Assembly: GCA_027923505.1 (NCBI GenBank)
Contig: BROI01000017.1
Coordinates: 124,001-188,000 of the forward strand
DNA from: Mayamaea pseudoterrestris
Taxonomy: Eukaryota
Direction of reading: 5' to 3'
DNA: 64,000 bases
Below, in pieces: positions 3,073 to 28,507 of the stretch (position 1 is the first letter of the stretch; every line of letters begins with the position of its first letter). The notes beneath the pieces were generated by a model that saw only the letters and a list, made by a program, of their open reading frames with translations, made no database searches and had not been told where the DNA came from. The position numbers and the translations under genes were made by a program.

Positions 3073-3711
3073 CATAGCCAAACAGGATTGATGGAACAAG
3101 ACTACAATTGGGGGTATATCTGGAAGGCCATGCACTATAGCACCATGGAGCTGGTTCCTGTGTGGATGTCTTATATGCCCTCCCATACCATAGCTGCTAA
3201 AAATCAGCTATGGATGATTTTTATGCACCAATCTCATCGCAAGCATGTCCCCAAGCATAGCCTAACAGGATTGATGGAGCAAGACAACAATTAGGGTAAT
3301 GTTTGGATGCCATGCACTGTAGCACCATGAAGCTGGTTCCTGTGTGGATGGCTGGATTGCCCTCCCATACCATAAATGCTAGGAATCAGCTATGGATGAT
3401 ATTTATGCATCAATCTCACCGCAAGCACGTCCCCAAGCATAGCCAAACATGATTGATGGAGCAAGACTACAATGGGCGGGTAGGTTTGGAAGGCCATGCA
3501 CTGTAGCACCATGGAGCTGGTACCTGTGTGGATATCTGGATTGCCCTCCCACACCGTAGCTGCTAGGAATCAGCTATGGATGAATTTCTGCACCAATCTC
3601 ACCGCAAGCATGTCCCCAAGCATAGCCAAATGGAATTGATGGAGTAAGACTACAATTGGGGGTAGATTTGGAAGGCCATGCACTGTAGCACCATGGAGCT
3701 GGTTCCTTTGT
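3073..3711. repeat. Tandem repeat family C, about 183-bp unit, about 3.5 copies
   Basis: 'catagcc(a/t)aa...gattgatgga' recurs at 3073, 3256, 3438 and 3621 (spacing 183, 182, 183). Confidence 0.9.
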
Positions 3712-4180
3712 GAATTGCCCCTATAACATGCCCTGCATAAGCCCGAATCACACCAGAATGGTGCCAACATCATTATTCAGTCTGCGCTACAAGATGGCAT
3801 GCCTGGCTGGTGTCTCAGTAGACTGCAATGTGACTGGTGAGAAATTCTCACCAGTCTCAGCCCACAGATGCTGTGACGTATAATTGCCCCTATAACATGC
3901 CCTGTATACACCCAAATTACACCAGAATGGTGCCAACATCATTATTCAGCTTGCGCTACAAGAAAAACTGCCTGGCTGGTCCCTCAGTAGACGGCATTGT
4001 GACTGTTGACAACTTGTCACCAGTCTCAGCCAGCAGATGCTGTTATTTTCAAATGCCCTACCTAGAGCCATGTGCATGCCCAAATCAAGCCAGAATGGTG
4101 CTAACATCCTTATTGCAGGTGCGCTACAAGAAAATTTGCCTGGCTTGTCCCTTAGTAGACTGCAATGTGATTGGTGACAG
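3712..4180 (+). repeat. Diverged monomers (about 2.8) of the 169-bp satellite, inverted relative to the main array
   Basis: 'accagaatggtgccaacatcattattcag...gcgctacaagatgg...ggctggtgtctcag' is the reverse complement of the main monomer. Confidence 0.9.
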
Positions 4181-4539
4181 CTAACCAATATGTTGGTTAA
4201 AGATGGCAATGCTTCAAATGATGGGTCGGCCAAAGTTCTCTGCCTTTTGGTTGTGGAAGGAATTTTTTAAGAGTTTCTTTTACTAGCCTGGCAGGTACCA
4301 ATCTTACATGACATACACGATCAAAGCCTACATTATATGCTAGCTTACAATCATCAAATCTGTACTAGTATACGAGTTTGCTGCAGAGTACTACCGGTAG
4401 GATATGGACCGGGAGTCGAAGGATTGGATAGTGCCTATGGTAGCAGCGCGTCGGCCAAAAAGTACTACCGGTAGCCACTATCATCTTTTTAGCAACCTTA
4501 CACTATCTGAGCCTGGATGCAAATTGTGAGTTCACAGTC

Positions 4540-7210
4540 AAGTACCTACCTGTTCCTTTTACACTAATCACCAGGGTAAGTTTGAGTTGGGTGGTGGCTG
4601 GCAGGGAAATGTTTACAGTCAATGAAACACACTCAATAGCCCTAGCCATGTGCCAGCCAGCTTCAATCTGAGTCTCTTCGGTTGCTAGGCTTTGATCCCG
4701 AAACTTTGAGCAATCAGTTACAGCGCTGGGAGCAGTATGTAGCGCAATGATTTGCAGCAGCAATCTCACAATGGTACTAACCAGTAATGCTGCAGAGTGA
4801 GGCCGACGTAATATGTACGTCTGGCGGTTGCTCGCAACGGTGCGCGTTCGTACACGCAGGATGCCATCTGTCGTGGTTTTACCTTCAAACTACCTCCAGA
4901 AAACGCCAGGAATGTTGTGGTTCGGCATGAGTTGGGTGGTGCTGTGCTGCAGGAAAATGAGATAAAACACACTCAACAGCGCATAAGCCATGTGCCAGCT
5001 CAGCTTCATCTCAGGAGTGTTCATAGACTGGACTAGGAAGATGTAAATGCCTTACCGGCAAGGCCATGTTCTACGGATGCAGACGATGTGCATATATTTC
5101 CACGACCACTGGTACCTTCAAACCCTCGGACGAATGACAACTGGGAGGTCGGAGTACGACAGGTAATTTACCGCATGTATGAAATCAACAATAGCCATGC
5201 CAGCGCCATGCTTCATGAGTCTCGCGGTCGCGACGCATTCATAAGGATGCAGGATGTGCAATCCATTCAATGGTATACCTACAACTCCTCCAGTAAAATG
5301 GCCGGGGTTGGGTGAGGTTTGGTAATGGCTGGCAGACACAACAATTTCAGCTATTCAAACACACTCAATAGCCATAGCCCCGGGCCATCCAGCTTCAATA
5401 TGAGTCTCTGCGGTTGCTAGGCATGCACATAGGATGCAGGATGTGCAATCTAATCAATGGTGTACCATTAAACCCTCCAGAAAAATGACTGGGGTTGGGT
5501 ACAGCAACGTTTTCAGCTATTCAAATACAAACACACTCACTAGCCATGAGCCAGCCTGCTTCAATATGAGTCTCTGCGGTTGCTAGGCATGCATAAAGGA
5601 TGTAGGATGTGCAATCCATTCCATGGTTTACCTTCACACCCTCCAGTAAAATGACCGGGGTTGGGTTTTCAGCTATTCAAATACAAACACACTCACTAGC
5701 CATGAGCCAGCCTGCTTCAATATGAGTCTCTGCGGTTGCTAGGCATGCATAAAGGATGTAGGATGTGCAATCCATTCCATGGTTTACCTTCACACCCTCC
5801 AGTAAAATGACCGGGGTTGGGTATGGTTTGGTGGTGGCTGGCAGGCACAACGGTTTCAGCTATTCAGACACACTCAATAGCCATAGCCATGTGCCAGCAA
5901 GCTTCAATCTGAGTCTCTGCGGTTGCTAGGCATGGAATAAATATGCAGGATGTGCAATCCATTCAATGGTATACCTTCAAACCCTCCAGAAAAATGACTG
6001 GGGTTGGGTTCAGCAACAGTTTCAGCTATTCAGATACAAACACACTCAATAGCCATAGCCATGAGCCAGCCAGCTTCAATATGAGTCTCTGCAGTTGCAA
6101 GGCATGGAATATGAATGTAGGATGTGCAATCTGTTCGAATGGTATACCTTTACACCCTCCAGTAAAATGACCGGGGTTGGGTGGGGTTTGGTGGTCAGCA
6201 GGCACATTGGTTTTAGCTATTCAAACACACTCAATTGCCATATCCATGTACCAGCCAGCTTCAATACGAGTCTCTGCGGTTGCTAGGCATGCATAAAGGA
6301 TACAGGATGTGCAATCCATTCAAGGGTATACCTACAACTTCTCTCCAGTAATATGACCGGGGTTGGGTTCGGCATGGGTCCAGCTACTCAAATATAAACA
6401 CACTCAATAGCCATAGCCACATGCCAGCCAGCTTCAATCTGAGTCTCTGCGGTTGCTAGGCAAGCATAAAGGATGCAGGATGTGCAATCCATTCAACGGT
6501 ACACCTTCAAACCCTCCAGTAAAATGACCGGGGTTGGGTTCAGCCATGGTTTCAGCTATTCAAATACAAACACACTCAATAGACATAACCATGAGCCAGC
6601 CTGCTTCAATATGAGTCTCTGCGGTTGCTAGGCATGCATAAAGGATGTAGGATTTGCAATCCGCTCAATGGTTTACCTTCACACCCTCCAGTAAAATGAC
6701 CATGGTTGGGTGGGGTTAGGTGGTGGCTGGCAGGCACATTGGCGTCAGCTATCCAAACACACTCAATAGCCATAGCCATGGGCCATCCAGATTCAATATG
6801 AGTCTCTGCGGTTACTAGGCATGCATAAAGGATACAGGATGTGCAATCCATTCAATGGTATTCCTACACCTCCTCCAGTAAAATGACTTGGGTTGGGTTC
6901 GGCATGGGTCTAGCTACTCAAATATAAACACACTCAATAGCCATAGCCACATGCCAGCCAGCTTTAATCTTAATCTCTGCGGTTGCTAGGCATGCATAAA
7001 GGATGCAGGATGTGCAATCCATTCAATGGTATACCCTCAAACCCTCCACTAAAATGACCGGTGTTGGGTTCAGCCTTGGTTTCAGCTATTCAAATACAAA
7101 CACACTCAATAGCCATGTCCATGGGCCAGCCTGCTTCAATATGAGTCTTATGAGTCTCTACGGTTGCTAGGTATGAATTAAAGATCTTGGATGTGCAATC
7201 CATTCAATGG
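4540..7210. repeat. Tandem repeat family B with long (about 187 bp) and short (about 156-173 bp) units; degenerate over about 4540-5250
   Basis: The anchor 'gcaatc' has its c at 5259, 5446, 5612, 5768, 5955, 6127, 6312, 6485, 6657, 6844, 7015 and 7196. Shared core: 'cttcaatatgagtctctgcggttgctaggcatgcata'. Confidence 0.92.
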
Positions 7211-10200
7211 GGCTTGCTGTAGGGCGTATGATTGTCACGGCATCTGTGGGCTGAGACTGGTGACAAGTTGTCACCAAATACATTGCCATCCCCTGAGACA
7301 CCAGCCAAGCCTACCATCTTGTAGCGCAGCTTGAATATTGAAGTTGGCACCATTCTGGTGTATTTTGGGCACCTACAGGGCTTGCTGTAGGGGCGTTTGA
7401 ATGTCACAGCATCTGCGGGTTGAGACTGGTGACAAGTTGTCACCAAATACATTGCCATCCCCTGAGACACCAGCCAAGCCTACCATCTTGTAGCGCAGCT
7501 TGAATAATGATGTTGGCACCATTCTGGTGTATTTTAGGCACCTACAGGGTTTGCTGTAGGGCGTTTGAATGTCACGGCATCTGTTTGCTGAGACTGGTGA
7601 CAAGTTGTCACCAAATACATTGCCATCCCCTGAGACACCAGCCAAGCCTACCATCTTGTAGCACAGCTTGAATAATGAAGTTGGCACCAATCTGGTGTAT
7701 TTTGGGCACCTACAGGGCTTGCTGTAGGGGCGTTTGAATGTCACGGCATCTGCGTGCTGAGACTGGTGACAAGTTGTCACCAAATACATTGTTATCCCCT
7801 GAGACACCAGCCAAGCCTACCATCTTGTAGCGCAGCCTGAATAATGTAGTTGGCACCATTCTATTGTATTTTGGGCACCTACAGGGCTTGCTGTAGGGGG
7901 GTTTGAATATCATGGCATCTGCGGGCTGAGACTGGTGACAAGTTGTCACCAAATACATTGTTATCCCCTGAGACACCAGCCAAACCTACCATCTTGTAGC
8001 ACAGCCAGAATAATGCTGTTGGCACCATTCTGGTGTATTTTGGGCACCTACAGGGCTTGCTGTAGGGGCGTTTGATTGTCACGGCATCTGCGGTCTGAGA
8101 CTGGTGACAAGTTGTCACCAAATACATTGCCATCCCCTGAGACACCAGCCAAGCCTACCATCTTGTAGCGCAGCTGGAATAATGATGTTGGCACCATTCT
8201 GGTGTACTTTAGGCACCTACATGGCTTGCTGTAGGGGCGTTTGAATGTCACGGCATCTGCGGGTTGAGACTCAAGTCCCATCCCCTGAGACACAGCCAGC
8301 TGTAGCGCAGCTTGAAATGATGTTGGCACCATTCTGGTGATGGCACCCACCTACAAGTTGTCACCAAATACATTGCCATCCCCTGAGACACCAGCCAAGC
8401 CTACCATCTTGTAGCGCAGCCTGAATAATGATGTTGGCACCTTTCTGGTGTACTTTGGGCTACTACAGGGCTTGCTGTAGGGGCGTATGATTGTCACGGC
8501 ATCTGTTTGCTGAGACTGGTGACAAGTTGTCACCAAATACATTGCCATCCCATGAGACACCAGCCAAGCCTACCATCTTGTAGCGCAGCCTGAAAAATGA
8601 AGTTGGCACCATTCTGGTGTATTTTGGGCACCTACAGGGCATGCTGTAGGGGCGTTTGAATGTCACGGCATCTGTAGGCTGAGACTGGTGACAAGTTGTC
8701 ACCAAATACATTGCCATCCCCTGAGAAACCAGCCAAGCTGACCATCTTGTAGCGCAGCTGGAATAATGATGTTGGCACCATTCTGGTGTATTTTGGGCAC
8801 CTACAGGGCTTGCTGTAGGGGCGTTTGAATGTCACGGCATCTGCGGGTTGAGACTGGTGACAAGTTGTCACCAAATACATTGCCATCCCCTGAGACACCA
8901 GCCAAGCCTACCATCTTGTAGCGCAGCCTGAATAATGATGTTGGCACCATTCTGGTGTATTTTGGGCACCTACAGGGCTTGCTGTAGGGGCGTTTGAATG
9001 TCACGGCATCTGCGGGCTGAGACTGGTGACAAGTTGTCACCAAATACATTGCCATCCCCTGAGACACCAGCCAAGCCTACCATCTTGTAGCGCAGCCTGA
9101 ATAATGATGTTGGCACCATTCTGGTGTATTTTGGGCACCTACAGGGCTTGCTGTAGGGGCGTTTGAATGTCACGGCATCTGCGGGCTGAGACTGGTGACA
9201 AGTTGTCACCAAATACATTGCCATCCCCTGAGACACCAGCCAAGCCTACCATCTTGTAGCGCAGCCTGAATAATGATGTTGGCACCATTCTGGTGTATTT
9301 TGGGCACCTACAGGGCTTGCTGTAGGGCGTTTGAATGTCACGGCATCTGCGGGCTGAGACTGGTGACAAGTTGTCACCAAATACATTGCCATCCCCTGAG
9401 ACACCAGCCAAGCCTACCATCTTGTAGCGCAGCCTGAATAATGATGTTGGCACCATTCTGGTGTATTTTGGGCACCTACAGGGCTTGCTGTAGGGGCGTT
9501 TGAATGTCACGGCATCTGCGGGCTGAGACTGGTGACAAGTTGTCACCAAATACATTGCCATCCCCTGAGACACCAGCCAAGCCTACCATCTTGTAGCGCA
9601 GCCTGAATAATGAAGTTGGCACCATTCTGGTGTATTTTGGGCACCTACAGGGCTTGCTGTAGGGGCGTTTGAATGTCACGGCATCTGTGGGCTGAGACTG
9701 GTGACAAGTTGTCACCAAATACATTGCCATCCCCTGAGACACCAGCCAAGCCTACCATCTTGTAGCGCAGCCTGAATAATGATGTTGGCACCATTCTGGT
9801 GTATTTTGGGCACCTACAGGGCTTGCTGTAGGGGCGTTTGAATGTCACGGCATCTGCGGGCTGAGACTGGTGACAAGTTGTCACCAAATACATTGCCATC
9901 CCCTGAGACACCAGCCAAGCCTACCATCTTGTAGCGCAGCCTGAATAATGATGTTGGCACCATTCTGGTGTATTTTGGGCACCTACAGGGCTTGCTGTAG
10001 GGGCGTTTGAATGTCACGGCATCTGCAGGCTGAGACTGGTGACAAGTTGTCACCAAATACATTGCCATCCCCTGAGACACCAGCCAAGCCTACCATCTTG
10101 TAGCGCAGCCTGAATAATGATGTTGGCACCACATGGCATCCGCTATGACACACCCTACGCTGAATATGATGTTGGCACCATTCTGGTGTATTTTGGGCAC

Positions 10201-13200
10201 CTACAGGGCATGCTGTAGGGGCGTTTGAATGTCACGGCATCTGCAGGCTGAGACTGGTGACAAGTTGTCACCAAATACATTGCCATCCCCTGAGACACCA
10301 GCCAAGCCTACCATCTTGTAGCGCAGCCTGAATAATGATGTTGGCACCATTCTGGTGTATTTTGGGCACCTACAGGGCTTGCTGTAGGGGCGTTTGAATG
10401 TCACGGCATCTGCGGGCTGAGACTGGTGACAAGTTGTCACCAAATACATTGCCATCCCCTGAGACACCAGCCAAGCCTGCCATCTTGTAGCGCAGCCTGA
10501 ATAATGATGTTGGCACCATTCTGGTGTATGTTGGGTACCTACAGGGCATGTTGTAGGGGCGGTTGAATGTCTCGGCATGTGCGGGCTGAGACTGGTGACA
10601 AGTTGTCACCAAATACATTGCCATCCCCTGAGACACCAGCCAAGCCTACCATCTTGTAGCGCAGCCTGAATAATGATGTTGGCACCATTCTGGTGTATTT
10701 TGGGCACCTACAGGGCTTGCTGTAGGGGCATTTGAATGTCACGGCATCTGCAGGCTGAGACTGGTGACAAGTTGTCACCAAATACATTGCCATCCCCTGA
10801 GACACCATCCAAGCCTACCATCTTGTAGCGCAGCCTGAATAATGATGTTGGCACCATTCTGGTGTATTTTGGGCACCTACAGGGCTTGCTGTAGGGGCAT
10901 TTGAATGTCACGGCATCTGCGGGCTGAGACTGGTGACAAGTTGTCACCAAATACATTGCCATCCCCTGAGACACCAGCCAAGCCTACCATCTTGTAGCGC
11001 AGCCTGAATAATGATGTTGGCACCATTCTGGTGTATTTTGGGCACCTACAGGGCTTGCTGTAGGGGCGTTTGAATGTCACGGCATCTGCTGGCTGAGACT
11101 GGTGACAAGTTGTCACCAAATACATTGCCATCCCCTGAGACACCAGCCAAGCCTACCATCTTGTAGCGCAGCCTGAATAATGATGTTGGCACCATTCTGG
11201 TGTATTTTGGGCACCTACAGGGCTTGCTGTAGGGGCGTTTGAATGTCACGGCATCTGCGGGCTGAGACTGGTGACAAGTTGTCAGTTGTCACCAAATACA
11301 TTGCCATCCCCTGAGACACCAGCCAAGCCTGCCATCTTGTAGCGCAGCCTGAATAATGATTTTGGCACCATTCTGGTGTATTTTGGGCACCTACAGGGCT
11401 TGCTGTAGGGGCGTTTGAATGTCTCGGCATATGCGGGCTGAGACTGGTGACAAGTTGTCACCAAATACATTGCCATCCCCTGAGACAGCAGCCAAGCCTA
11501 CCATCTTGTAGCGCAGCCTGAAAAAAGATGTTGGCACCATTCTGGTGTATGTTGGGTACCTACAGGGCATGTTGTAGGGGCGTTTGAATGTCTCGGCATC
11601 TGTGGGCTGAGACTGGTGACAAGTTGTCACCAAATACATTGCCATCCCCTGAGACACCAGCCAAGCCTACCATCTTGTAGCGCAGCCTGAATAATGATGT
11701 TGGCACCATTCTGGTGTATTTTGGGCACCTACAGGGCTTGCTGTAGGGGCGTTTGAATGTCACGGCATCTGCGGACTGAGACTGGTGACAAGTTGTCACA
11801 AATACATTGCCATCCCCTGAGACAACAGCCAAGCCTACCATCTTGTAGCGCAGCCTGAATAATGATTTTGGCACCATTCTGGTGTATGTTGGGCACCTAC
11901 AGGTCTTGCTGTAGGGGCGTTTGAATGTCTCGGCATCTGCGGGCTGAGACTGGTGACAAGTTGTCACCAAATACATTGCCATCCCCTGAGACACCAGCCA
12001 AGCCTGCCATCTTGTAGCGCAGCCTGAATAATGATGTTGGCACCATTCTGGTGTATTTTGGGCACCTACAGGGCTTGCTGTAGGGGCGTTTGAATGTCTC
12101 GGCATATGCGGGCTGAGACTGGTGACAAGTTGTCACCAAATACATTGCCATCCCCTGAGACACCAGCCAAGCCTACCATCTTGTAGCGCAGCCTGAATAA
12201 TGATGTTGGCACCATTCTGGTGTATGTTGGGCACCTACAGGGCTTGCTGTAGGGGCGTTTGAATGTCACGGCATCTGTGGGCTGAGACTGGTGACAAGTT
12301 GTCACCAAATACATTGCCATCCCCTGAGACACCAGCCAAGCCTACCATCTTGTAGCGCAGCCTGAATAATGATGTTGGCACCATTCTGGTGTAAATTGGG
12401 CACCTACAGGGCTTGCTGTAGGGGCATTTATATGTCACGGCCTCTGCGGGCTGAGACTGGTGACAAGTTGTCACCAAATACATTGCCATCCCCTGAGACA
12501 CCAGCCAAGCCTACCATCTTGTAGCGCAGCCTGAATAATGATGTTGGCACCATTCTGGTGTATTTTGGGCACCTACAGGGCTTGCTGTAGGGGCGTTTGA
12601 TTGTCACGGCATCTGCGGTGGACTCTGGTGACAAGTTGTCACCAAATACATTGCCATCCCCTGAGACACCAGCCAAGCCTACCATCTTGTAGCGCAGCCT
12701 GAATAATGATGTTGGCACCATTCTGGTGTATTTTGGGCACCTACAGGGCTTGCTGTAGGGGCATTTGAATGTCACGGCATCTGCGGGCTGAGACTGGTGA
12801 CAAGTTGTCACCAAATACATTGCCATCCCCTGAGACACCAGCCAAGCCTACCATCTTGTAGCGCAGCCTGAATAATGATGTTGGCACCATTCTGGTGTAT
12901 TTTGGGCACCTACAGGGCTTGCTGTAGGGGCGTTTGAATGTCACGGCATCTGCAGGCTGAGACTGGTGACAAGTTGTCACCAAATACATTGCCATCCCCT
13001 GAGACACCATTCAAGCCAACCATCTTGTAGCGCAGCCTGAATAAGGATGTTGGAACCATTCTGGTATTTTTGGGCACCTACAGGGCTTGCTGTAGGGGCA
13101 TTTGAATGTCACGGCATCTGCGGGCTGAGACTGGTGACAAGTTGTCACCAAATACATTGCCATCCCCTGAGACACCAGCCAAGCCTACCATCTTGTAGCG

Positions 13201-16200
13201 CAGCCTGAATAATGATGTTGGCACCATTCTGGTGTATTTAGGGCACCTACAGGGCTTGCTGTAGGGGCGTTTGAATGTCACGGCATCTGCGGGCTGAGAC
13301 TGGTGACAAGTTGTCACCAAATACATTGCCATCCCCTGAGACACCAGCCAAGCCTACCATCTTGTAGCGCAGCCTGAATAATGATGTTGGCACCATTCTG
13401 GTGTATTTTAGGCACCTACAGGGCTTGCTGTAGGGGCGTTTGAATGTCACGGCATCTGCGGGCTGAGACTGGTGACAAGTTGTCACCAAATACATTGCCA
13501 TCCCCTGAGACAGCAGCCAAGCCTACCATCTTGTAGCGCAGCCTGAAAAATGATGTTGGCACCATTCTGGTGTATGCTGGGCACCTACAGGGCTTGCTGA
13601 AGGGGTGTTTGAATGTCATGGCATCTGCGGGCTGAGACTGGTGACAAGTTGTCACCAAATACATTGCCATCCCCTGAGACACCAGCCAAGCCTACCATCT
13701 TGTAGCGCAGCTTGAACAATGATGTTGGCACTATCCTGGTGTATGTTGGGCACCTACCAGGCTTGCTGTAGGTGTGTCTGAATGTCATGGCATCTGAGGG
13801 CTGAGACTGGTGACAAGTTGTCACCAAATACATTGCCATCCCCTGAGACACCAGCCAAGCCTACCATCTTGTAGCGCAGCTTGAACAATGATGTTGGCAC
13901 CATTCTGGTGTAATTCGGGAACCTGCAGGGCCTGCTGTAGGGGGTTTGAATGTAACAGCATCTGCGGGCTGAGGCTGGTGACAAGTTGTCACCAAATACA
14001 TTGCTATCCCCTGAGACTCACGCCAAGCCTACCATCTTGTAGCGCAGCCTGAATAATGATGCTGGCACCATTATGGTGTATATTGGGCACCTACAGGGCT
14101 AGCTGTAGGGGCGTTTGAATGTCATGGCATCTGCGGGATGAGACTGGTGACAAGTTGTCACCAAATACATTGCCATCCCCTGAGACACCAGCCAAGCTTA
14201 CCATCTTGTAGCGCATCCTCAAAAATGATGTTGGCACCGTTCAAGTGTATTTTGGGCACCTACCCGGCTTGCTGTAGGGGCGTTTGAATGTCATGGCATC
14301 TGCAGGCTGAGACTGGTGACAAGTTGTCACCAAATACATTGCCATCCCCTGAGACACCAGCCAAGCCTACCATCTTGTAGCGCAGCCTGAACAATGATGT
14401 TGGCACCATTCTGGTGTATTTTGGGCACCTACAGGGCTTGCTGTAGGGGCGTTTGAATGTCACGGCATCTGCGGGCTGAGACTGGTGACAAGTTGTCACC
14501 AAATACATTGCCATCCTCTGAGACACCAGCCAAGCCTACCATCTTGTAGCGCATCTTGGACAATGATGTTGGCACCATTCTGGTTTAATTTGGGCATCTA
14601 TAGGGCCTGCTGTAGGTGTGTCTGAATGTCATGGCAGCTGCGGGCTGAGACTGGTGACAAGTTGTCACCAAATACATTGCCATCCCCTGAGACACCAGCC
14701 AAGCCTACCATCTTGTAGCGCAGCCTGAATAATGATGTTGGCACCATTCTGGTGTATTTTGGGCACCTACAGGGCTTGCTGTAGGGGGGTTTGAATGTCA
14801 CGGCATCTGCAGGCTGAGACTGGTGACAAGTTGTCACCAAATACATTGCCATCCCCTGAGACACCAGCCAAGCCTACCATCTTGTAGCGCAGCCTGAATA
14901 ATGATGTTGGCACCATTCTGGTGTATTTTGGGCACCTACCGGGCTTGCTAGAGGGGCGTCTGAATGTCACGGCACCTGCGGGCTGAGACTGGTGACAAGT
15001 TGTCACCAAATACATTGCCATCCCCTGAGACACCAGCCAAGCTTACCATCTTGTAGCGCAGCTTGAATAATGATGTTGGCACCATTCTGGTGTATTTTGG
15101 GCACCTACAGGGCTTGCTGTAGGGGCGTTTGAATGTCACGGCATCTGCGGGCTGAGACTGGTGACAAGTTGTCACCAAATACATTGCCATCCCCTGAGAC
15201 ACCAGCCAAGCCTACCATATTGTAGCGCAGCCTGAAAAATGATGTTGGCACCATTCTGGTGTATTTTGGGCACCTACAGGGCTTGCTGTAGGGGCGTTTG
15301 AATGTCACGGCATCTGCGGGCTGAGACTGGTGACAAGTTGTCACCAAATACATTGCCATCCCCTGAGACACCAGCCAAGCCTACCATCTTGTAGCGCAGC
15401 CTGAATAATGATGTTGGCACCATTCTGGTCTATTTTGGGCACCTACAGGGCTTGCTGTAGGGGCGTTTGAATGTCACGGCATCTGCGGGCTGAGACTGGT
15501 GACAAGTTGTCACCAAATACATTGCCATCCCCTGAGACACCAGCCAAGACTACCATCTTGTAGCGCAGCCTAAAAAATGATGTTGGCACCATTCTGGTGT
15601 AATTTGGGCACCTATCGGGCTTGCTGTAGGGCGTTTGAATGTCACGGCATCTGCGGGCTGACACTAGTGACAAGTTGTCACTAAATACATTGCCATCCCC
15701 TGAGACACCAGCCAAGCCTACCATCTTGTAGCGCAGCCTGAATAATGATGTTGGCACCATTCTGGTGTATTTGGGCACCTACAGGGCTTGCTGTAGGGGC
15801 GTTTGAATGTCACGGCATCTGCGGGCTGAGACTGGTGACAAGTTGTCACCAAATACATTGCCATCCCCTGAGACACCAGCCAAGCCTACCATCTTGTAGC
15901 GCAGCCTGAATAATGATGTTGGCACCATTCTGGTGTATGTTGGGCACCTACAGGGCTTGCTGTTGGGGCGTATGAATGTCACGGCATCTGCGGGCTGAGA
16001 CTGGTGACAAGGTGTCACCAAATACATTGCCATCCCCTGAGACACCAGCCAAACCTACCATCTTGTAGCGCAGCCTGAATAAGGATGTTGGCACCATTTG
16101 AGTGTATTTTGGGCACCTACAGGGCTTGCTGTAGGGGCGTTTGAATGTCACGGCATCTGCGGGCTGAGACTGGTGACAAGTTGTCACCAAATACATTGCC

Positions 16201-16788
16201 ATCCCCTGAGACACCAGCCAAGCCTACCATCTTGTAGCGCAGCCTGAATAATGATGTTGGCACCATTCTGGTGTATTTTGGGCACCTACAGGGCTTGCTG
16301 TAGGGGCGTTTGAATGTCACGGCATCTGCGGGCTGAGACTGGTGACAAGTTGTCACCAAATACATTGCCATCCCCTGAGACACCAGCCAAGCCTACCATC
16401 TTGTAACGCAGCATGCAAAATGATGTTGGCACCATTCTGGTGTAGTTTGGGCACCTACAGGGCTTGCTGTAGGGGCGTTTGAATGTCACGGCATCTGCAG
16501 GCTGAGACTGGTGACAAGTTGTCACCAAATACATTGCCATCCCCTGAGACACCAGCCAAGCCTACCATCTTGTAGCGCAGCTTGAATAATGATGTTGGCA
16601 CCATTCTGGTGTAATTTGGGCACCTACAGGGCTTGCTGTAGGTGTGTCTGAATGTCACGGCATCTGCAGGCTGAGACTGGTGACAAGTTGTCACCAAATA
16701 CATTGCCATCCCCTGAGACACCAGCCAAGCCTACCATCTTGTAGCGCAGCCTGAATAATGATGTTGGCACCATTCTGGTGTCATTTGG
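7211..16788. repeat. Main 169-bp satellite (family A), left arm, about 57 head-to-tail monomers
   Basis: Consensus gggcacctacagggcttgctgtaggggcgtttgaatgtcacggcatctgcgggctgagactggtgacaagttgtcaccaaatacattgccatcccctgagacaccagccaagcctaccatcttgtagcgcagcctgaataatgatgttggcaccattctggtgtatttt (169 nt). ORF-track hits also recur every 169 bp. Confidence 0.98.
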
Positions 16789-17117
16789 TGACACGATAAT
16801 ATCAGACGAACCTTTATTCCAGCGACTACAATGGACTCGGAGCGATCAACCTCTTCGTCCAGCGTAAAGCAAACAAACAAACTCAATTGCTAGAATAGTG
16901 GATGTTACTCGCTACTCTACTCGTGCGCTTCTTTCTCGTTCTCACTGGGTTCACGGTCGAGGTTCACGCCTCGATCGTCAGCGATTTCACTCATGTATGT
17001 GAGGATTCGGTCACAAGTGTGACTCAACCCTGCACAGGATTAAATGCATACAAAACACAGGTAGCTAACCGTCTTGTCATAAGACGCAGGTCAACTCAAC
17101 TCAATAATATTGTGTCA
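16789..17117 (-). repeat. 3' LTR (329 bp)
   Basis: TGACACGATAAT...AATATTGTGTCA (TG..CA ends with an imperfect terminal inverted repeat). Only two substitutions seen relative to 21672-22000. Confidence 0.96.
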
Positions 17118-17127
17118 TCCCCCTTGA
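17118..17127 (-). other. Polypurine tract (plus-strand primer)
   Basis: Minus strand reads TCAAGGGGGA directly abutting the 3' LTR. Confidence 0.8.
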
Positions 17128-17128
17128 T

Positions 17129-18440
17129 CTAGGCTTGTGACAACGATCGGTTTGCCGTATCACCCTTCCAGAAAAGAATCGGAATGATCAGGGGTCGGAA
17201 CGTGGCATGCGGCAAGAACTTGGTAAGAACGTCGGCGACGTTCTGCTTGCCGAAGATGTGCTCAAAGTACAGAACATTGCTTGCAATGGCCTCGCGAACT
17301 CGGTGGTAGGCGAGCGCATTGTGTCGCTTAGAAAGTGTGGAGTGCGGGATCGTTGACGACTTCTTGACACTTTCGTTGTCGCCGAACATCCAGGCTGGTC
17401 CACTCAAAGGAACTCCCAACATGCGTAGGGAGTATCGGAAATCCATAATCTGTTCCGTCGCGGTCTTGGCGACGACGAACTCGGATCCGTACGTTGCAGT
17501 CTCGACAGTATTCTGACGCTTGCAGAACCATTCGACGGGCGTCTGGTTCAGGAAATGCAGGACTCCCATTGCGGAACGTCCAGTAGTGTAATCATGGTAC
17601 AGGTTCGCGTCCATAAAGGTAGTTAGTTGCACAGGCTTGCCCTTCGGGATCGGCATGTTCCACGGAAGCTCTTCGCTTGAGTTGCCGTAGACCGATTGCA
17701 ACCAATCATACTTGGTAGGTTCCCCGTGATCGACGATCTTCGTCCGGAAACGAATCGCCGCATCAGGGTACTCAGCTAGGTAACCGCAGACTCGCTTGGC
17801 TCGGTCCAGGTGTCCACGGCGCGGGGCGCAGCGGAATCGGCCAAGTGTCATTACGGCACAATGAATGTCTAGTCGACATAGGGTCACTGCCCACTGGAGG
17901 GCACCGATAAGAGACTGGTACTGTTGAATGCCACGGGCATCCAGCTCTTCGGTAAGGTCAAGTTCGGGGTGGTCCCCCAGTCGTAAAGAATCTTGCCGTT
18001 CGCAAAGGTCGGCTAGTTCGTTGTAGGTAATAAGCTCGTCGACGTCGCCGTCGCCGAGACTCAATCGAAACTTGATAATCTTGTGGTTGGCTTCATCGCG
18101 ATCGTTTAGTTGTTCAATAACCTTGTAACGTCGCGTGGAGCCGTCTTCCTCGTCAAGAAGGACAGTGCGTCCCATCAGTTCAGCCGGAGTAAAGGACGGC
18201 ATGGGTCCGTTGGGATCCAGACCGGCTAACTCGGCAGCGCTTTCCAACGTGAATGCGTCTTCATCCACGGTTCCCCCAGAATCAGGCGCTGGGGTCGGTG
18301 TAAGGTCATGTTCAAACACCGGACCGACTAGGTCATACTCATCGTCAAAATCGTTGACGGTTTCGACTTGGACTCTCCGCGGCCGCGTCGAAGACAGGTT
18401 CCGCGAACAATGGTCGTTCGGACTCGGGTTCAGGGGCGCC
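17129..18440 (-). pseudogene. Copia pol remnant: post-integrase linker joined by an in-frame deletion (near 17980) to the RT C-terminus and an intact RNase H
   Basis: YQSLIGALQWAVTLCRLDI, FMDANLYHD..TGRS, KRQNTVETATYGSEF, FGDNESV and NVADVLTK are present. The RT catalytic core (YVDD) is absent. Confidence 0.9.
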
Positions 18441-18443
18441 AGC

Positions 18444-18802
18444 TTCTGGTGTATTTTGGGGCACCTACAGGGGCTTGCTGTAGGGCGTTGAACGTCATGG
18501 CGTCTGCAGAGCTGAGACTGGTGACAAGTTGTCACCAAATACATACCATCCCCTGAGACACCAGCCAAGCCTACTCATCTTGTAGCACAGCCTCGAATAA
18601 TGAAGTTGGCACCATTCTGGTGTATTTTGGGCACCTACATGGCTTGTTGTAGGGGTTTGAATGTCACGGATCTGTGCGGTTGAGACTGGTGACAAGTTGT
18701 CATCAAATACATTGCTATCCCCTGAGACACCAGCCAAGCCTACCATCTGTAGCGCAGCTGGAATAATGATGCTGGCACCATTCTGGTGTACTCTTTAGGC
18801 AC
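18444..18802. repeat. About two indel-rich 169-bp satellite monomers inside the retrotransposon
   Basis: Monomer sequence including 'ctggtgacaagttgtcaccaaat', with many 1-nt indels. Confidence 0.9.
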
Positions 18803-19433
18803 CAGGGTTCTGGTTCTGGTATCCGCTCGCTCTGTTGGTCACGAATCGCGTAGAATCGCAACAAGGTTTCAACTTGCTTCCCGAGCGCCGCGAGTTACGA
18901 TGAGTATCAGCCAAGTCGACGAAGAGCGCCTCTCGTAATGTCTTCGGCATGTCACTCGGTTCTCAGTGGGTATCCCCTCGTCAGCAAGCTCTTCTTGCCG
19001 ACGAACAGTTGCATCATCTTGCATCCGCCATGGCCGCGGATTCCGTCGAAGGCGGGTTCGGAAAACCAGGTATCTGTCCCGCCGTATGGTCGAAACGAAC
19101 CACATTGGCGAGGGAATCGCGACTCAAAGTGTTGGCGAAATGGGGTGTGTGCCGATGCACGGAAAAGCTGTGTCGTATTCTTAATGGTGCGCTTGACTCG
19201 TTCAAGTGGCGTCTAGGGCAAGCGGGTCGAGGCGCTTGGTCAGGTTTTCTGGCATGCGTCGGGCATTGGCTTGGCGCGTCGTATCAGCCTGATTGCGATC
19301 GACATACTGCACACCACACGTTCCACTGAGTTCATGTTGTTCGTAGGTGGCGTCGCGAAGTCATCCATGCGGGCGTCGACGAAAGGTTCTTCCACCCGCG
19401 GGAGATAAACCAAGTTTTTGTTCTGCAAACGAG
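18803..19433 (-). pseudogene. Frameshifted copia integrase fragment
   Basis: Minus-strand pieces read TDTWFSEPAFDGIRGHGGCKMMQLFVGKKSLLTRGYPL and LGKQVETLLRFYAIRDQQSE...QNP, resembling a copia integrase core. Confidence 0.75.
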
Positions 19434-19597
19434 GAAAATGATGCTGGCACCATTCTGGTGTACTCTTTAGGCACTCAAGGCTTGGTTGTAGGGGCGTTGA
19501 ATGTGTTACCCATCTGTGCGCCTGAGACTGGTGACAAGTTGTCATCAAATCACATTGCCATCCCCTGAGACACTGCCGTTCACCATATTGTAGCGCA
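19434..19597. repeat. One indel-rich satellite monomer inside the retrotransposon, where the protease region is expected
   Basis: 'gcaccattctggtgta...ctgagactggtgacaagttgtcatcaaat...ccatcccctgagacac'. Confidence 0.88.
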
Positions 19598-21452
19598 CCG
19601 ATACCATTGCGCGGTACCGACGGCCGTCGCTTCCCATAAACTCTTGCTGGGTGTTATTCGCAGCTTGAGTGCGAGACGACGCGGCGTTCGCAAGGAAAGA
19701 TCTAATCATGTCATCCGGTGCACCTTGAGTGGCTGTCGTCGGGGCGATCGAGACAGCGTCATTCTGATACAGGATTGTACCAGGCACCGAGGCAGCCGCT
19801 TGTGACTGCTGGTTATTCGCGCGGTTGCCGTTGTTCGCGCGTCTTGTTGTGGCGGGTCTTGGGACGGCTTCGCGTCGAGCCATGAGCTGAGCGTATTCGT
19901 CCTCGTTAAGTCGGCCGAGTCGTTCGTACGACATGTACGACCAGGGGGCCTGCAACAACTGTTCAAAGTTCAGATAATCACCAGGGAATCGCTCCCGATG
20001 CGCTTGGGTGCCGGCTGCTGGTAGTGGCGCGGAAGAGCCTCGTCCTCCGGAACCGCGGCCCGCTTGAGTGCCACGTCCACCGTCTCGTCCAGCGCCGCGT
20101 CCGCCTTGGCCGCCGCGTCCTCCACCACGTCCGGAACCGCGTCCGCTGCCACGTCCTTGGCCGGTAGTGTTCGCGTTGTTCGCTTGGCGGTCGGCGTTCT
20201 TCTTGCCCTTATTCAACTTGGCGTTCTTGTTGTCGATGCGCAAAGCCTGCTGCGACAACATGTCGAAAAGATAGTCATAATCTTCCGTTACGACAGCATC
20301 TGGGTCACCGCCCGCACTGATGATGCGTCGTCGTTCAAATGTCAAGTGCTGGTCGAATGTCGTGCACGTGGGGCCGAATTCTTCGTCGCCTTCCACTGCA
20401 GCTCGGAGCCAGTAGTACTTCTTCTTGTCATCCGTCACTCCAGGACGGAACTCTTCGAGATTCTTCATGAGCTGTTCGATGTAGTTTAGGAACTTGTAGT
20501 GTCCTTTCGTCCAGGTCGAATCTAGGCGAATCGTAGCAAGCTTGGCTTGTAGTTCGTTCGCTTGGATGGTAGCTAACTCGCCGGAACCAAACTTGGTCGC
20601 GAGGTCGCGATAGACGCTCTGAGCGTCAGACTCGTCAGCGTACTTCATTAGGAGCGATTGGTATCCAGGTACTTCGAGACAATTGCGAAACGCAGTGTAC
20701 ATGAAGATTTGCTGCTCCTTGAACTCTTCCTTCTCTTCTTCCGTGACTGGTACGTACTTGCTATTGAGCACGTTAGAACAGCCATGGAGCTTGGCGATTG
20801 CCTTGGTAGACGCGCTCCAACTCAACCACCCGTGGGGATGCTGGAACGTCTTGTAGTCCTTGTAATCTCGCTTCGTCTTGATGTTCGAGAATCGACCCTT
20901 GGCATCCGCTTCCTTTTCGGCCTTCTCAGCCTTCAAGTTCTCATTTTCGAGTTGCTTGGCAAGTAGCTCGGCTTGCTTCTTCTTAGACTCGAGCTCGTAG
21001 TATCCTTCTTCGCGCTTCCGACCGATTTCTTGTTCGGCGAGTATCTCTTGGAATCGCTCGAGCTTGCCTAAATCAAGCAACGCCCACTTCTTGGTGTTCG
21101 GGGGTCCATCGTGCATGGTAAACCATTCGCATGCATCGAGGACAAGGTTCACGTAGACTGGTGCTAGTGTCGTCTCGTATCGTACTGGGGCGGCGGCTTC
21201 TTGCTCTTCGGCCGGTTCTTCGGCCGGCTCGTCGCCCGGCGGCGCATCGTCGGGTTGCGCGCCTTCAGGTTGTCCAACGCCAGCTTGAATGGCGGCTCTG
21301 TCGACCCAGTAGGGGGCTTCAAGTTGCTCCTTGGTCAATCTCAACATCTGGGTAGTGGTGGTTACATTCCAAAACAAGAACGCTTCTTGGATGTCTCGTC
21401 CGAAAACGTTCGTGCAGAGAAGCTGCAAAGCTTCCGCAGTAATCGCAACCAT
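19598..21452 (-). CDS. Retrotransposon Gag-like protein, 3'-truncated by satellite
   Basis: Long open frame just after the 5' LTR, likely ATG at 21452 (MVAITAEAL). It has a capsid-like segment (HGCSNVLNSKYVP...EQQIFMY...DAQSVY) and an RG/RGG-rich basic region; no CCHC knuckle seen. Confidence 0.8.
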
Positions 21453-21656
21453 GATAGTGAATACCTCGCTTTCCGCAAGTCCTTTCTTACACAACAACCG
21501 CTCTCAATGCAGTCGAGCCTTATACGATCCTGTTCTACGCGCTCGTGCCAAGTATTCGGATTGACGACGCCGCAAGGAATCTGCTCTTTCTCTCTCAATT
21601 TCTCGATTCTTTTACTCTCTCTCTTTCGCACAGCTCTCTCAGGTCAAGACAAGCTA

Positions 21657-21671
21657 GCAAGACTGTTAATC
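21657..21671 (-). other. Putative primer-binding site complementary to the tRNA-Asn(GUU) anticodon arm
   Basis: Plus strand GCAAGACTGTTAATC directly abuts the 5' LTR; there is no canonical TGG. Confidence 0.6.
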
Positions 21672-22000
21672 TGACACGATAATATCAGACGAACCTTTAT
21701 TCCAGCGACTACAATGGACTCGGAGCGATCAACCTCTTCGTCCAGCGTAAAGCAAACAAACAAACTCAATTGCTAGAATAGTGGATGTTACTCGCTACTC
21801 TACTCGTGCGCTTCTTTCTCGTTCTCACTGGGTTCACGGTCGAGGTTCACGCCTCGATCGTCAGCGATTTCACTCATGTATGTGAGGATTTGGTCACAAG
21901 TGTGACTCTACCCTGCACAGGATTAAATGCATACAAAACACAGGTAGCTAACCGTCTTGTCATAAGACGCAGGTCAACTCAACTCAATAATATTGTGTCA
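21672..22000 (-). repeat. 5' LTR (329 bp)
   Basis: Near-identical direct repeat of 16789-17117. Confidence 0.96.
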
Positions 22001-25000
22001 CTTGCTGTAGGTGTGTCTGAATGTCATGGCAGTGTGGGCTGAGACTGGTGACAAGTTGTCACCAAATACATTGCCATCCCCTGAGACACCAGCCAAGCCT
22101 ACCATCTTGTAGGGCAGCCTGAATAATGATGTTGGCACTATCCAGGTGTATTTTGGGCACCTACAGGGCCTGCTGTAGGTGTGTCTGAATGTCATGGCAT
22201 CTGCGGGCTGAGACTGGTGACAAGTTGTCACCAAATACATTGCCATCCCCTGAGACACCAGCCCAGCCCACCATCTTGTAGCGCAGCCTGAATAATGATG
22301 GAGGCACCATTCTGGCGTATTTTGGGCACCTACAGAGTTGCTGTAGGTGCATTTAATTGTCATGGCATCTGTGGGCTGAGACTGGTGACAAGTTGTCACC
22401 AAATACATTGCCATCCCCTGAGACACCAGCCAAGCTTACCATCTTGTAGCGCAGCCCTCAAAAATGATGTTGGCACCATTCTGGTCTAATTTGGGCATCC
22501 GGGCTTGCTGTAGGTGTGTCTGAATGTCATGGCAGCTGTGGGCTGAGACTGGTGACAAGTTGTCACCAAATACATTGCCATCCCCTGAGACACCAGCCAA
22601 GCCTACCATCTTGTAGCGCAGCCTGAATAATGATGTTGGCACCATTCTGGTGTAATTTGGGCATCTGCAGGGCCTGCTGTAGGAGGGTTTGAATGTAACG
22701 GCAACTGCGGGCCAAGACTGGTGACAAGTTGTCACCAAATGCATTGCCATCCCCTGAGACACCAGCCAAGCTTACCATCTTGTAGCGCATCTTCAAAAAT
22801 GATGTTGGCCCCGTTCTGGTTTAATTTGGGCATCTACCAGGATTGCTGTAGGGGCGTTTGAATGTCACGGCATCTGCAGGCTGAGACTGTGCACAAGTTG
22901 TCACCAAATACATTACCATCCCCTGACATACCAGCCAAGCCTACCATATTGTAGCGCAGCCTGAAAAATGATGATGTTGGCACCATTCTGTTGTATTTTG
23001 GGCACCTACAGGGCCTGCTGTAGGTCTGTCTGAATGTCATGGCATCTGCGGGCTGTATTTGGTGACAAGTTGTCACCAAATACATTGCCATCCCCTGAGA
23101 CACCAGCCAAGCCTACCATCTTGTAGCGCAGCCTGATTAATGATGTTGGCACCATTCTGGTCTAATTTGGGCATCCAGGCTTGCTGTTGGTGTGTCTGAA
23201 TGTCATGGCATCTGCAGGCTGAGACTGGTGGCAAGTTGTCACCAAATGCATTGCCATCCCCTGAGACACCAGCCAAGACTACCATCTTGTAGCGCAGCCT
23301 CAAAAATGATGTTGGCACCATTCTGGTCTAATTTGGGCACCTACCGGGCTTGCTGTAGGTGTGTCTAAATGTCATGGCAGCTGTGGGCTGAGACTGGTGA
23401 CAAGTTGTCACCAAATACATTGCCATCCCCTGAGACACCAGCCAAGCCTACCATCTTGTAGCGCAGCCTGAATAATGATGTTGGCACCATTCTGGTGTAT
23501 GCTGGGCACCTACAGGGCTGCTGAATGGGCGTTTGAATGTCATGGCATCTGCGGGCTGAGACTGGTGACAAGTTGTCACCAAATACATTGCCATCCCCTG
23601 AGACAGCAGCCAAGCCTACCATCTTGTAGCGCAGCCTGAAAAATGATGTTGGCACCATTCTGGTGTATGTTGGGCACCTACAGGGCTAGCTGTTGGGGCG
23701 TTTGAATGTCATTGCATCTGCGGGATGAGACTGGTGACAAGTTGTCACCAAATACATTGCCATTCCCTGAGACACCAGCCAAGCTTACTATCTTGTAGCG
23801 CAGCTTGAACAATGATGTTGACACCATTTGAGTGTGTAATTTGAGCACCTACAGGGCCTGCTGTAGGTGTGTCTGAAAGTCATGGCAGCTGCTGGCTGAG
23901 ACTGGTGACAAGTTGTCACCAAATACATTGCCATCCCCTGAGACACCAGCCAAGCCTATGATCTTGTAGCGCAGCCTTAACAATGATGTTGGCACCATTC
24001 TGGTGTATTTTGGGCACCTACCGGGCCTGCTGTAGGGGGGTTTGAATGTCATGGCATCTGGAGGCTGAGACATTGCCATCTCCTGAGACACCAGCCAAGC
24101 CTACCATCTTGTAGCGCATCTTCCAAAATGATGTTGGCACCATTATGGTGTCTTTTGGGCACCTACAGGGCCTGCTGTTGGTGTGTCTGAATGTCACGGC
24201 ATCTGCAGGCTGAGACTGGTGACAAGTTGTCACCAAATACATTGCCATCCCCTGAGACACCAGCCAAGCCTACCATCTTGTAGCGCATCTTCCAAAATGA
24301 TGTTGGCACCATTCTGGTGTATTTTGGGCACCTACAGGGCCTGCTGTTGGTGTGTCTGAATGTCATGGCATCTGCAGGCTGAGACTAGTGGCAAGTTGTC
24401 ACCAAATGCATTGCCATCCCCTGAGACACCAGCCAAGCTTACCAACTTGTAGCGCAGCCTCAAAAATGATGTTGGCACCAATCTGGTCTAATTTGGGCAC
24501 CTACCGGGCTTGCTGTAGGTGTGTCTGAATGTCATGGCAGCTGTGGGCTGAGACTGGTGACAAGTTGTCACCAAATACATTGCCATCCCCTGAGACACCA
24601 GCCAAGCCTACCATCTTGTAGGGCAGCCTGAATAATGATGTTGGCACTATCCAGGTGTATTTTGGGCACCTACAGGGCCTGCTGTAGGTGTGTCTGAATG
24701 TCATGGCATCTGCGGGCTGAGACTGGTGACAAGTTGTCACCAAATACATTGCCATCCCCTGAGACACCAGCCCAGCCCACCATCTTGTAGCGCAGCCTGA
24801 ATAATGATGGAGGCACCATTCTGGCGTATTTTGGGCACCTACAGAGTTGCTGTAGGTGCATTTAATTGTCATGGCATCTGTGGGCTGAGACTGGTGACAA
24901 GTTGTCACCAAATACATTGCCATCCCCTGAGACACCAGCCAAGCTTACCATCTTGTAGCGCAGCCCTCAAAAATGATGTTGGCACCATTCTGGTCTAATT

Positions 25001-25250
25001 TGGGCATCCGGGCTTGCTGTAGGTGTGTCTGAATGTCATGGCAGCTGTGGGCTGAGACTGGTGACAAGTTGTCACCAAATACATTGCCTTCCCCTGAGAC
25101 ACCAGCCAAGCCTACCATCTTGTAGCGCAGCCTGACTAATGATGTTGGCACCATTCTGGTGTAATTTGGGCACCTATCGGGCCTGCTGTAGGTGTCTGTG
25201 AATATCATGGCATCTGCAGGCGAGACTGGTGACAAGTTGTCACCAAATAC
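22001..25250. repeat. 169-bp satellite, right arm, about 19 more heterogeneous monomers
   Basis: Same monomer and orientation as the left arm; the variant 'gtaggtgtgtctgaatgtcatgg' predominates. Confidence 0.97.
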
Positions 25251-25500
25251 AAGAATATTAGCATCATTCTGGCTTGATTTGGGCATACACATGGCTCAAG
25301 GTGTGGACGTTGGAAAATTTGGGCATCTGCTGGCTGAGTTCTCACCAGTCACATTGCAGTATACCAAGGGACCAGCCAGGCAATCCATCCTGTAGCGCAC
25401 CTGAAAGAAGGATGTTAGCACCATTCTGGCTTGATTTGGGCATACGCATGGCTCAAGGTATGGGCACTTGAAGGGCATGGCAGCTGCTGACTGAAATTTG
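25251..25500. repeat. Strongly diverged border monomers of the 169-bp satellite
   Basis: 'tgtagcgcacctgaaagaaggatgttagcaccattctggcttgatttgggcat' is the inverse match of 4077-4130. Confidence 0.85.
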
Positions 25501-25862
25501 GCACATCTACTTCCACAACTTTTCAAAAACTTGAGCTTCCCAGGTTTGTTTGGGCTAGTTGGCCTCATTAAAATCTTGGCCCATGGTGGCAATGTTTGTA
25601 ATTGATGGGGATGTTCAGGGGACCTATCAGTGTGGTGTGGCAGGTTTGGTTTGGTGGCACAATCCTCAGCTTTGTTGGAAGCTAGCAGGTCTATTCCCAA
25701 AATAATGGCCATAAGCTGGTCTGGATTCTGAAACAGTCCTTCCTTTCTATCTGGCACATCTACTCCCACAACTTCCCAAAAATTTGAGCTTGCCAGGTTT
25801 GTTAGGGTTTGTTGGCCTCATTGACATCTTGGCCCGTGGTGGCAATGTTTTTAATTGATGGG
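25500..25862. repeat. Imperfect direct repeat of about 110 bp with about 253-bp spacing
   Basis: 'ggcacatctact..cacaactt...ggcccRtggtggcaatgttt.taattgatggg' at about 25500-25609 and 25753-25862. Confidence 0.8.
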
Positions 25863-25899
25863 GTTGTCTATAGGACCTGGGGTCAAGATAAGTTTACTG

Positions 25900-26055
25900 G
25901 CTAGTGTCTCAGTGGACTGCTATGTGATTGATGATAACTTGTCACCAGTCTCAGCCAGAAGCTGTCATGCCTTTCAGTAGCCCACACCTTGAGCCATGTG
26001 TATGCAGCCAGTCAACTTATCTTGTAGCGCACTTGAAATAAGAAAGTTAGCACCA
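25900..26055. repeat. Scrambled satellite remnants in both orientations
   Basis: 'gtgtctcagtggactgc...aacttgtcaccagtctcagcc' (inverted sense) is followed by 'tcttgtagcgcacttgaaataagaaagttagcacc' (array sense). Confidence 0.7.
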
Positions 26056-28125: not shown

Positions 28126-28507
28126 GCTGCTGAATGCTGTGGTCGTTCGTTGGAACGAGTGGCGGTGCGTTTGGATGCTCGACTAGTTTCGTTGCTAATC
28201 TATACTTCTATCTCTCCAAGTATTCAAGTCGTCAAGCGCGAGACTTTTTTAACGAACTGATAGAATACGCAATGTGCTTCTGTTGCGAGCGTTGGCTTCT
28301 TGCACTGTGGCCGAGTCATAAAGCACCGCTGTCGATTGTCCCATGGTGAACGCGAAACGTCTGAACGACTGGCCGGCGCGCTTGCACGTGTCATTATGAC
28401 GTCACGCTGACAAGTTGAAGTGATGCATGGACGACCATGACGGATTTGCGCTTGCTGCTTCCATCACTTCGTCGTCCGAATGTCTCTGCTGGCTTCTCGA
28501 TACTGCC

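Follow-up and report, generated by a model that had tools for sequence, protein, structure and literature searches.

A 23-kb satellite block of the diatom Mayamaea pseudoterrestris is one of roughly a hundred repeat islands dispersed among genes

The window discussed here is a stretch of 64,000 nucleotides from the genome of the diatom Mayamaea pseudoterrestris (GenBank assembly GCA_027923505.1; 30.6 Mb in 41 contigs), which corresponds to C17:124001-188000, C17 being our name for contig BROI01000017.1. It contains a block of tandem repeats of about 23 kb (positions 3073 to 26055 of the window), most of which consists of a 169-bp satellite monomer and a copia-type retrotransposon, and which a preliminary description of the window considered as a candidate satellite-type centromere. 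Our analysis shows that the block belongs to a set of roughly a hundred dispersed islands, 1-45 kb in size, in gene-dense chromosomes, and that it has no special claim to be the centromere site. The block, its parts and the adjoining genes are listed below (o/e, observed to expected ratio; LTR, long terminal repeat).

3073..3712, + strand: 3.5 copies of a tandem repeat of 182 bp, with a CpG o/e of 0.09 and no relation to the 169-bp monomer
3713..4182, - strand: copies of the 169-bp monomer that are inverted and diverged (74-83%)
4625..7210, + strand: family of about 172 bp (units of 156-186 bp), decayed at its left end, unrelated to the 169-bp monomer, CpG o/e 0.22
7210..16788, + strand: main 169-bp array, about 57 monomers, with the same consensus as arrays on several other contigs
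8855..8873: one instance of the 19-bp dyad, with arms of 9 bp and a centre of 1 base, that is present in every monomer
16789..17117, - strand: LTR of 329 bp (TG...CA), adjoining a polypurine tract
17118..21671, - strand: copia-type internal region, with a gag-like frame (19545-21503) and an RNase H-end frame (17129-18574)
21672..22000, - strand: second LTR of 329 bp, differing from the first at 2 of 329 bases
22001..25251, + strand: right 169-bp array, about 19 monomers, a subtype 88-95% identical to the core, with 5 consensus differences
25252..26055, both orientations: decayed relics (71-83%) of the 169-bp monomer at the island edge
926..1900, - strand: left flanking gene with an HNH domain, outside the island
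26464..28182, - strand: right flanking gene with ankyrin repeats, outside the island and 412 bp from its edge

Much of what had been said of the repeats themselves was confirmed. The main and right arrays together contain about 76 monomers of 169 bp (about 75 had been claimed); the monomer, described as about half GC, has a GC fraction of 0.515 (51.5%), the block as a whole ranging within 46-55%; and in the supposedly near-identical core at about 8800-10100 the copies at 8841-10022 are 98.8-100% identical to each other. The block is also gene-free, inasmuch as the open reading frames (ORFs) of at least 150 amino acids (aa) within it are three copia frames and two chance frames in repeat sequence, the nearest ones outside lying at a distance of 1,173 bp on the left and 412 bp on the right. 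As to the satellite domain as a whole, the array is real, but positions 3073-7210 belong mostly to the 182-bp and ~172-bp families rather than to the 169-bp one. The proposed rise of divergence toward the edges did not hold: identity in the left array falls to 92-93% at about 13.6-14.6 kb but recovers to 97-100%, and the array on the right belongs to a subtype of its own, so that the profile is that of two arrays joined via the copia element and not one smooth gradient. Within the right array a run of variant monomers at about 22020-22620 recurs at about 24530-25130, some 2.5 kb apart, which represents a higher-order duplication. The 169-bp repeat was also found in short-read contigs from four runs of two studies, where the summed contig depth, a measure that does not equal copy number, was 60-100 times higher on the satellite than on copia. 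The run with the best match may come from the source sample; no RNA data set was among those listed with the repeat, which has no bearing on its expression.

The same repeat is spread over nearly the whole assembly. A 24-base motif of the monomer gave 4,712 exact matches genome-wide and its reversed control none; scaled by its capture of 140 of the approximately 175 monomers on C17, this corresponds to about 5,900 monomers, or 1.0 Mb. Array loci were sampled with two rare variants of the motif (50 and 60 matches), pooled with earlier matches and 11 further positions, which yielded at least 80 loci with a merge distance of 30 kb, or at least 75 with one of 50 kb, on 35 of the 41 contigs, some of these loci being possibly single monomers. 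Two or more loci are present on 22-23 of the 35 contigs, and a capture-recapture estimate gives 92-136 loci of the 169-bp family in total. The consensus of the window array is the same as that of samples from at least six other contigs, these samples having been picked for likeness. A 181-bp family (1,601 exact motif matches) is likewise dispersed. In a metagenome scan the monomer motif had no matches. The preliminary description had proposed genome-wide mapping of the monomer and had named many sites per chromosome as refuting the centromere reading; the mapping revealed many sites per contig, and the block is therefore not a unique satellite centromere. A single array domain per chromosome was not observed either, as there are three 169-bp arrays on C17 and six loci on C12 (975 kb).

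All 724,790 bp of C17 were read. Nine satellite islands were found, amounting to 82,348 bp (11.4% of the contig); three are 169-bp islands, and the other six hold 181-bp, 174-bp and 347/348-bp arrays, two of each. The positions of the 169-bp islands and of the longest units are as follows.

C17, 75-78 kb, 127-150 kb and 497-510 kb: 169-bp array islands
C17:484619-492075 and 585305-604429: 347/348-bp satellites, old dimers of about 174 bp

The array at 496.7-510.4 kb, with about 80 copies of the 169-bp unit, is larger than the main array of the window and at least as uniform. Many short arrays occur among genes along the contig (nine islands per 725 kb): ORFs of at least 150 aa cover 78.5% of C17 outside the islands, the nearest of them lie 0.1-1.9 kb from the islands, and the gaps between islands are irregular, from 4.6 to 316 kb. 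Six families are represented on C17, all with units of 169-182 bp or dimers of such units, and their pairwise similarity is not significant. A common box of the Meloidogyne type was looked for and rejected, since shuffled sequences gave shared words of the same length as the longest ones found in two, three and four of the six families (P 0.49, 0.60 and 0.43, respectively). A 42-bp minisatellite forms short arrays on the same contig, at 21.0, 48.1, 63.3, 90.4, 109.4, 123.4, 574.7 and 579.2 kb; unlike the nucleosome-length families, it is not depleted of CpG (o/e 1.4).

Depletion of CpG is what the nucleosome-length families have in common. The CpG o/e is 0.09-0.32 in all eight consensus units tested versus 1.09 for the rest of C17, and 38 of the 362 2-kb windows of this contig have a value below 0.6, all of them overlapping satellite. 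Among 410 monomers, divergence at CpG sites is 15.6% versus 4.7%. Long-term CG methylation is a likely cause of this depletion, because in Phaeodactylum CG methylation of repeats is maintained by DNMT5a (PMC9998398).

The second property of the 169-bp monomer concerns its palindrome, which is perfect over 19 bp and whose arm length was reached in 1 of 300 shuffles. It is the most conserved 19-base window of the monomer (1.2% divergence versus 5.3%, in an alignment not anchored on the palindrome), and in 25 array samples it carries fewer variants per site than the remaining positions (3.05 versus 8.66, P 8e-9) and fewer singletons (2.5 versus 5.8, P 2e-6). Self-repair of the palindrome as the sole cause of this conservation was rejected: unbiased conversion from arm to arm would erase half of the changes and double the other half, so that the per-site divergence would stay unchanged, contrary to the 2-3 times lower divergence observed, and among the variants listed 1 of 410 monomers was changed on both arms. 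A change on both arms was also seen in one of the inverted monomer copies within 3713..4182. The 347/348-bp families bear a 27-bp palindrome in each half, with both arms changed between the halves and the arms changed in step, and the central nine bases are common to these palindromes and to that of the 169-bp monomer. In four of the six families a long palindrome was not found, and folding of the whole 169-bp monomer is unremarkable (z -0.68).

The preliminary description saw a young copia element inside the array. The two 329-bp LTRs with their two differences are there, but an intact young insertion had to be rejected: no target-site duplication was found across the element, whose outer flanks differ, and comparison with another copy (L188) revealed a 1.15-kb internal deletion near 17975, the lack of the reverse transcriptase (RT) region and two internal segments replaced by satellite (18444-18803 and 19437-19597), where additional 169-bp fragments are found. 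The affected part has 46 gap openings relative to L188 over 1.8 kb, compared with 3 over 2.4 kb for the gag part. At 18439, 18803 and 19589 short-read contigs (X3 and X5) carry on as normal copia sequence, the indels at 18824 and 19110 are contradicted by all covering short-read contigs, and among the short-read records listed no copia-satellite junction is bridged. The region of 17.9-19.6 kb is probably an assembly patchwork. At copia loci on three other contigs (L045 on C26, L034 on C16 and L049 on C19) the 169-bp satellite also lies on the internal side or nearby; such recurrent satellite-in-copia mosaics represent either real nesting or a repeated assembly error. As the best 41 hits to the copia family (130 candidates, of which 40 were scored) share 99-100% identity throughout, the two-site difference between the LTRs dates the family and not the insertion in the window.

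In the order of what we take to be its motifs (gag, protease and integrase before RT and RNase H) the element resembles the Ty1/copia elements of the CoDi type, as it does in the TG...CA ends of its LTRs and in its many copies. The clade A of these diatom elements has a putative chromodomain (PMC2774666). By contrast, no Pfam domain, chromodomain included, was found in the copia frames tested here, and the copies examined are broken or mis-assembled; at the integrase C-terminus no Pfam match to a chromodomain was obtained in the frameshifted pieces of L188, and in the window copia this region is deleted.

The surroundings of the family were evaluated at 30 LTR loci. The outer flank was a named satellite in 12 cases, CpG-depleted DNA in 7, within or beside another copy in 6 and elsewhere in 5, while copia itself has a CpG o/e of 1.2. 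For the un-nested loci, 19 of 24 in satellite or CpG-depleted DNA exceed the safe-haven expectation of 0.39 (P 7e-5); the strict count of 12 of 24 with a named satellite gives P 0.18, and paired LTRs are non-independent. Targeting of the satellite islands by copia is graded here as likely.

As for the centromere, the genome contains one divergent histone H3 gene (C2:130 kb), in which Q68 is replaced by A and F84 by W and loop 1 is lengthened, features which we take to be diagnostic of a CENH3-like protein. The centromeres of Phaeodactylum, monocentric by chromatin immunoprecipitation (ChIP), have as their signature at least ten 100-bp windows of at most 32% GC within 3 kb (10.1101/096016). On the whole of C17 this low-GC signature is absent, the maximum being 3 windows and the lowest 1-kb GC content 42.6%. 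Screening the genome for stretches of 30 A/T bases, one mismatch being allowed, yielded, among the matches listed, 53 positions in 12 clusters, 8 of them simple repeats and 4 complex, and the DNA around the four complex clusters has 44-51% GC, with no low-GC centromere there. In simulations, this screen had a power of 38% per 3-kb region at 28% GC; the power fell to 12% at 32% and was close to zero at 36%, so that centromeres like those proposed for Fistulifera solaris, with 36-42% GC (10.1101/2021.11.10.468027), would be missed. The earlier suggestion that this species has a different type of centromere thus gains from the results for C17 and the four clusters and is held back by the limited power of the screen. 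The islands are similar to the Phaeodactylum and Fistulifera centromeres in the diatom host, the intergenic position and the presence of a CENH3 gene; the latter centromeres, however, are short, low-GC, satellite-free and one per chromosome, whereas the block described here has 51% GC and is tandemly repeated.

The sole telomere tract of the assembly is located at the start of C11, and C17, being without telomeres, may be a chromosome fragment. Behind the telomere tract, the first 4 kb of C11 (C11:1-4048) contain copia sequence, an LTR and a 180/352-bp satellite. The sole interstitial telomere-like tract found has four units (C30:219806-219829). Among 40 contig ends read, 8 carry satellite, and the 181-bp family is present at 7 of the 40 (starts of C4, C9, C17 and C20, ends of C10, C18 and C6), with the same polarity toward the end in 6 of 7, a hint that, apart from forming interstitial arrays, this family may have a subtelomeric role.

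Taken together, these data make it probable, in our estimate at about 0.62, that the islands are dispersed CG-methylated heterochromatin on chromosomes that have remained monocentric like those of other diatoms. The arrays would grow through unequal exchange in nucleosome-sized steps, and new sites would be seeded by ectopic copying. Methylation of the DNMT5 type would silence the islands and erode CpG sites in them, intact monomers would be favoured through a protein or cruciform located at the palindrome, and copia elements would land or survive in the islands. CENH3 would be placed on one epigenetically chosen island per chromosome, or at a site of unrecognised kind. In holocentric Luzula, CENH3 is missing from most arrays even where the satellite is a centromeric one, and non-functional arrays average about 20 kb (PMC11538461), hence arrays alone are no proof of centromere units.

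Several points weigh against this interpretation. The size and spacing of the arrays match those of the Tyba holocentromeres discussed below. A compact chromosome that devotes about a tenth of its length to satellite would presumably pay a high price if this DNA were useless. That the palindrome is constrained and that six families have converged on the same length of unit suggests a function beyond that of inert DNA. No alternative centromere emerged, given the results for low-GC regions on C17 and at the four AT-run clusters, and the methylation of the islands is deduced from sequence.

A rival interpretation is that of repeat-based holocentric or polycentric chromosomes, on which many islands, dozens per chromosome set and from several families, would load CENH3, partly specified by the palindrome, would be colonised by copia and would have replaced the short low-GC centromere of related species. 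We consider this possible, although rather unlikely. Its closest parallel is Tyba of Rhynchospora, with monomers of 172/182 bp (10.64898/2026.01.17.700053) and arrays of about 20 kb, one every ~400 kb (PMC10954556); here a 169-bp monomer forms arrays whose size is 3-23 kb, and the estimate of 92-136 loci for the 30.6 Mb of the assembly corresponds to one per 230-330 kb. As with Tyba, the arrays lie among genes (0.1-1.9 kb away), are methylated, presumably so in our case, and share their sequence across chromosomes, the array consensus being identical across contigs. A CENH3-like gene is retained while low-GC centromeres did not appear on C17 or at the four AT-run clusters; the outer flanks of LTRs lie in satellite or CpG-depleted DNA at 19 of 30 loci; and dyads mark centromeric satellites (PMC5889037) and are commoner in functional arrays of Lusy1 (PMC11538461). 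On the other hand, the occupancy of the islands by CENH3 is a prediction. Tyba is one family with demonstrated CENH3 binding and fairly regular spacing, whereas here there are at least six families in a 30-Mb stramenopile genome, four of six without a long palindrome, and the spacing on C17, the one contig fully mapped, is uneven (4.6-316 kb), though the genome-wide mean fits. A single family is not a strict criterion, because Luzula uses two. Its satellites, Lusy1 and Lusy2 of L. sylvatica, occur with dyads in hundreds of dispersed and irregularly distributed arrays, similarly to the islands of Mayamaea, but functional arrays average 94-189 kb there and only 11-35% of arrays bind CENH3 (PMC11538461), and in size the arrays described here match the non-functional class of about 20 kb. 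Furthermore, the sole diatom mapped by ChIP is monocentric, the contigs are not whole chromosomes, with one telomere tract only, and the AT screen is powerless for centromeres of 36-42% GC.

It appears improbable that the chromosome has the window island as its one satellite centromere. Its nucleosome-length monomer, uniform core, decayed edges and internal LTR element, as well as its place among the larger islands of C17, are in line with monocentric satellite centromeres such as those with human alpha satellite or the Arabidopsis 178-bp repeat, which have one large array per chromosome. The contigs studied here carry many small arrays instead: C17 has two further 169-bp arrays, one of them larger and more uniform, and six other islands, the consensus of the window array recurs on at least six other contigs, and the nested copia is partly an artefact.

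It is still less probable that the islands are assembly joins, in which ends of small chromosomes or unrelated loci were glued via shared satellite and copia. Telomere repeats are nearly absent from the assembly, satellite occurs at one fifth of the contig ends read (8 of 40), and in the window the subtype changes across a poorly assembled copia without target-site duplication, which makes a misjoin at this one spot quite possible. However, arrays of 0.7-7 kb, and others separated from each other by just 4.6 and 12 kb, are embedded among ordinary genes, where long reads would normally span them, the single interstitial telomere-like tract disfavours fused chromosome ends, and misjoins of chromosomes with one array each cannot yield several arrays per contig. 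A synteny comparison at 34 metagenome loci with a relative of MTHFR, in which no neighbour gene was common to the window region, is uninformative in this respect. The weakest alternative, that the arrays are inner repeats of a mobile element (a Helitron or a miniature inverted-repeat transposable element) or selfish knob-like drivers with no host role, would agree with the recent movement implied by near-identical arrays at many unlinked sites and with palindromes that could serve as hairpin signals, but the 17 edges of the nine C17 islands show no shared flank, evident terminal repeat or target-site duplication, and we give it hardly any weight.

Some features lying apart from the islands deserve mention. 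In the window, a 1,351-aa frame (51010-55065, + strand) combines a UvrB-like helicase with UvrC-like GIY-YIG and RNase H domains and represents a UvrB-UvrC fusion in a diatom nuclear genome, and a kinesin motor gene (37114-39774, + strand) lies 11 kb from the island, probably by coincidence. The silicon-transporter family PF03842 has six full-length matches in the genome, which marks the host as a diatom; at C1:2970661-2974680 there is a 1,445-aa frame with three tandem silicon-transporter domains.

In the literature we found no report of satellite islands or holocentricity in diatoms, most subscription journals and supplements being outside the coverage of the search, and the layout of this genome is apparently both unusual and undescribed. 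What is new here is the presence of many arrays per contig, the reading of a whole contig, the constraint on the palindrome and the absence of a low-GC centromere where one was looked for. So far, centromeres have been described for very few diatoms, and the view that they are short, poor in GC and free of repeats underlies the design of episomes and artificial chromosomes. If CENH3 is on no island of M. pseudoterrestris, the islands would constitute a large dispersed heterochromatin system. If it is on one island per chromosome, a satellite centromere would be picked among look-alikes, and if it is on many, holocentricity would have arisen in a stramenopile, which, as far as our literature search shows, would be the first case in a diatom; either of the latter two outcomes would change the picture of diatom chromosomes.

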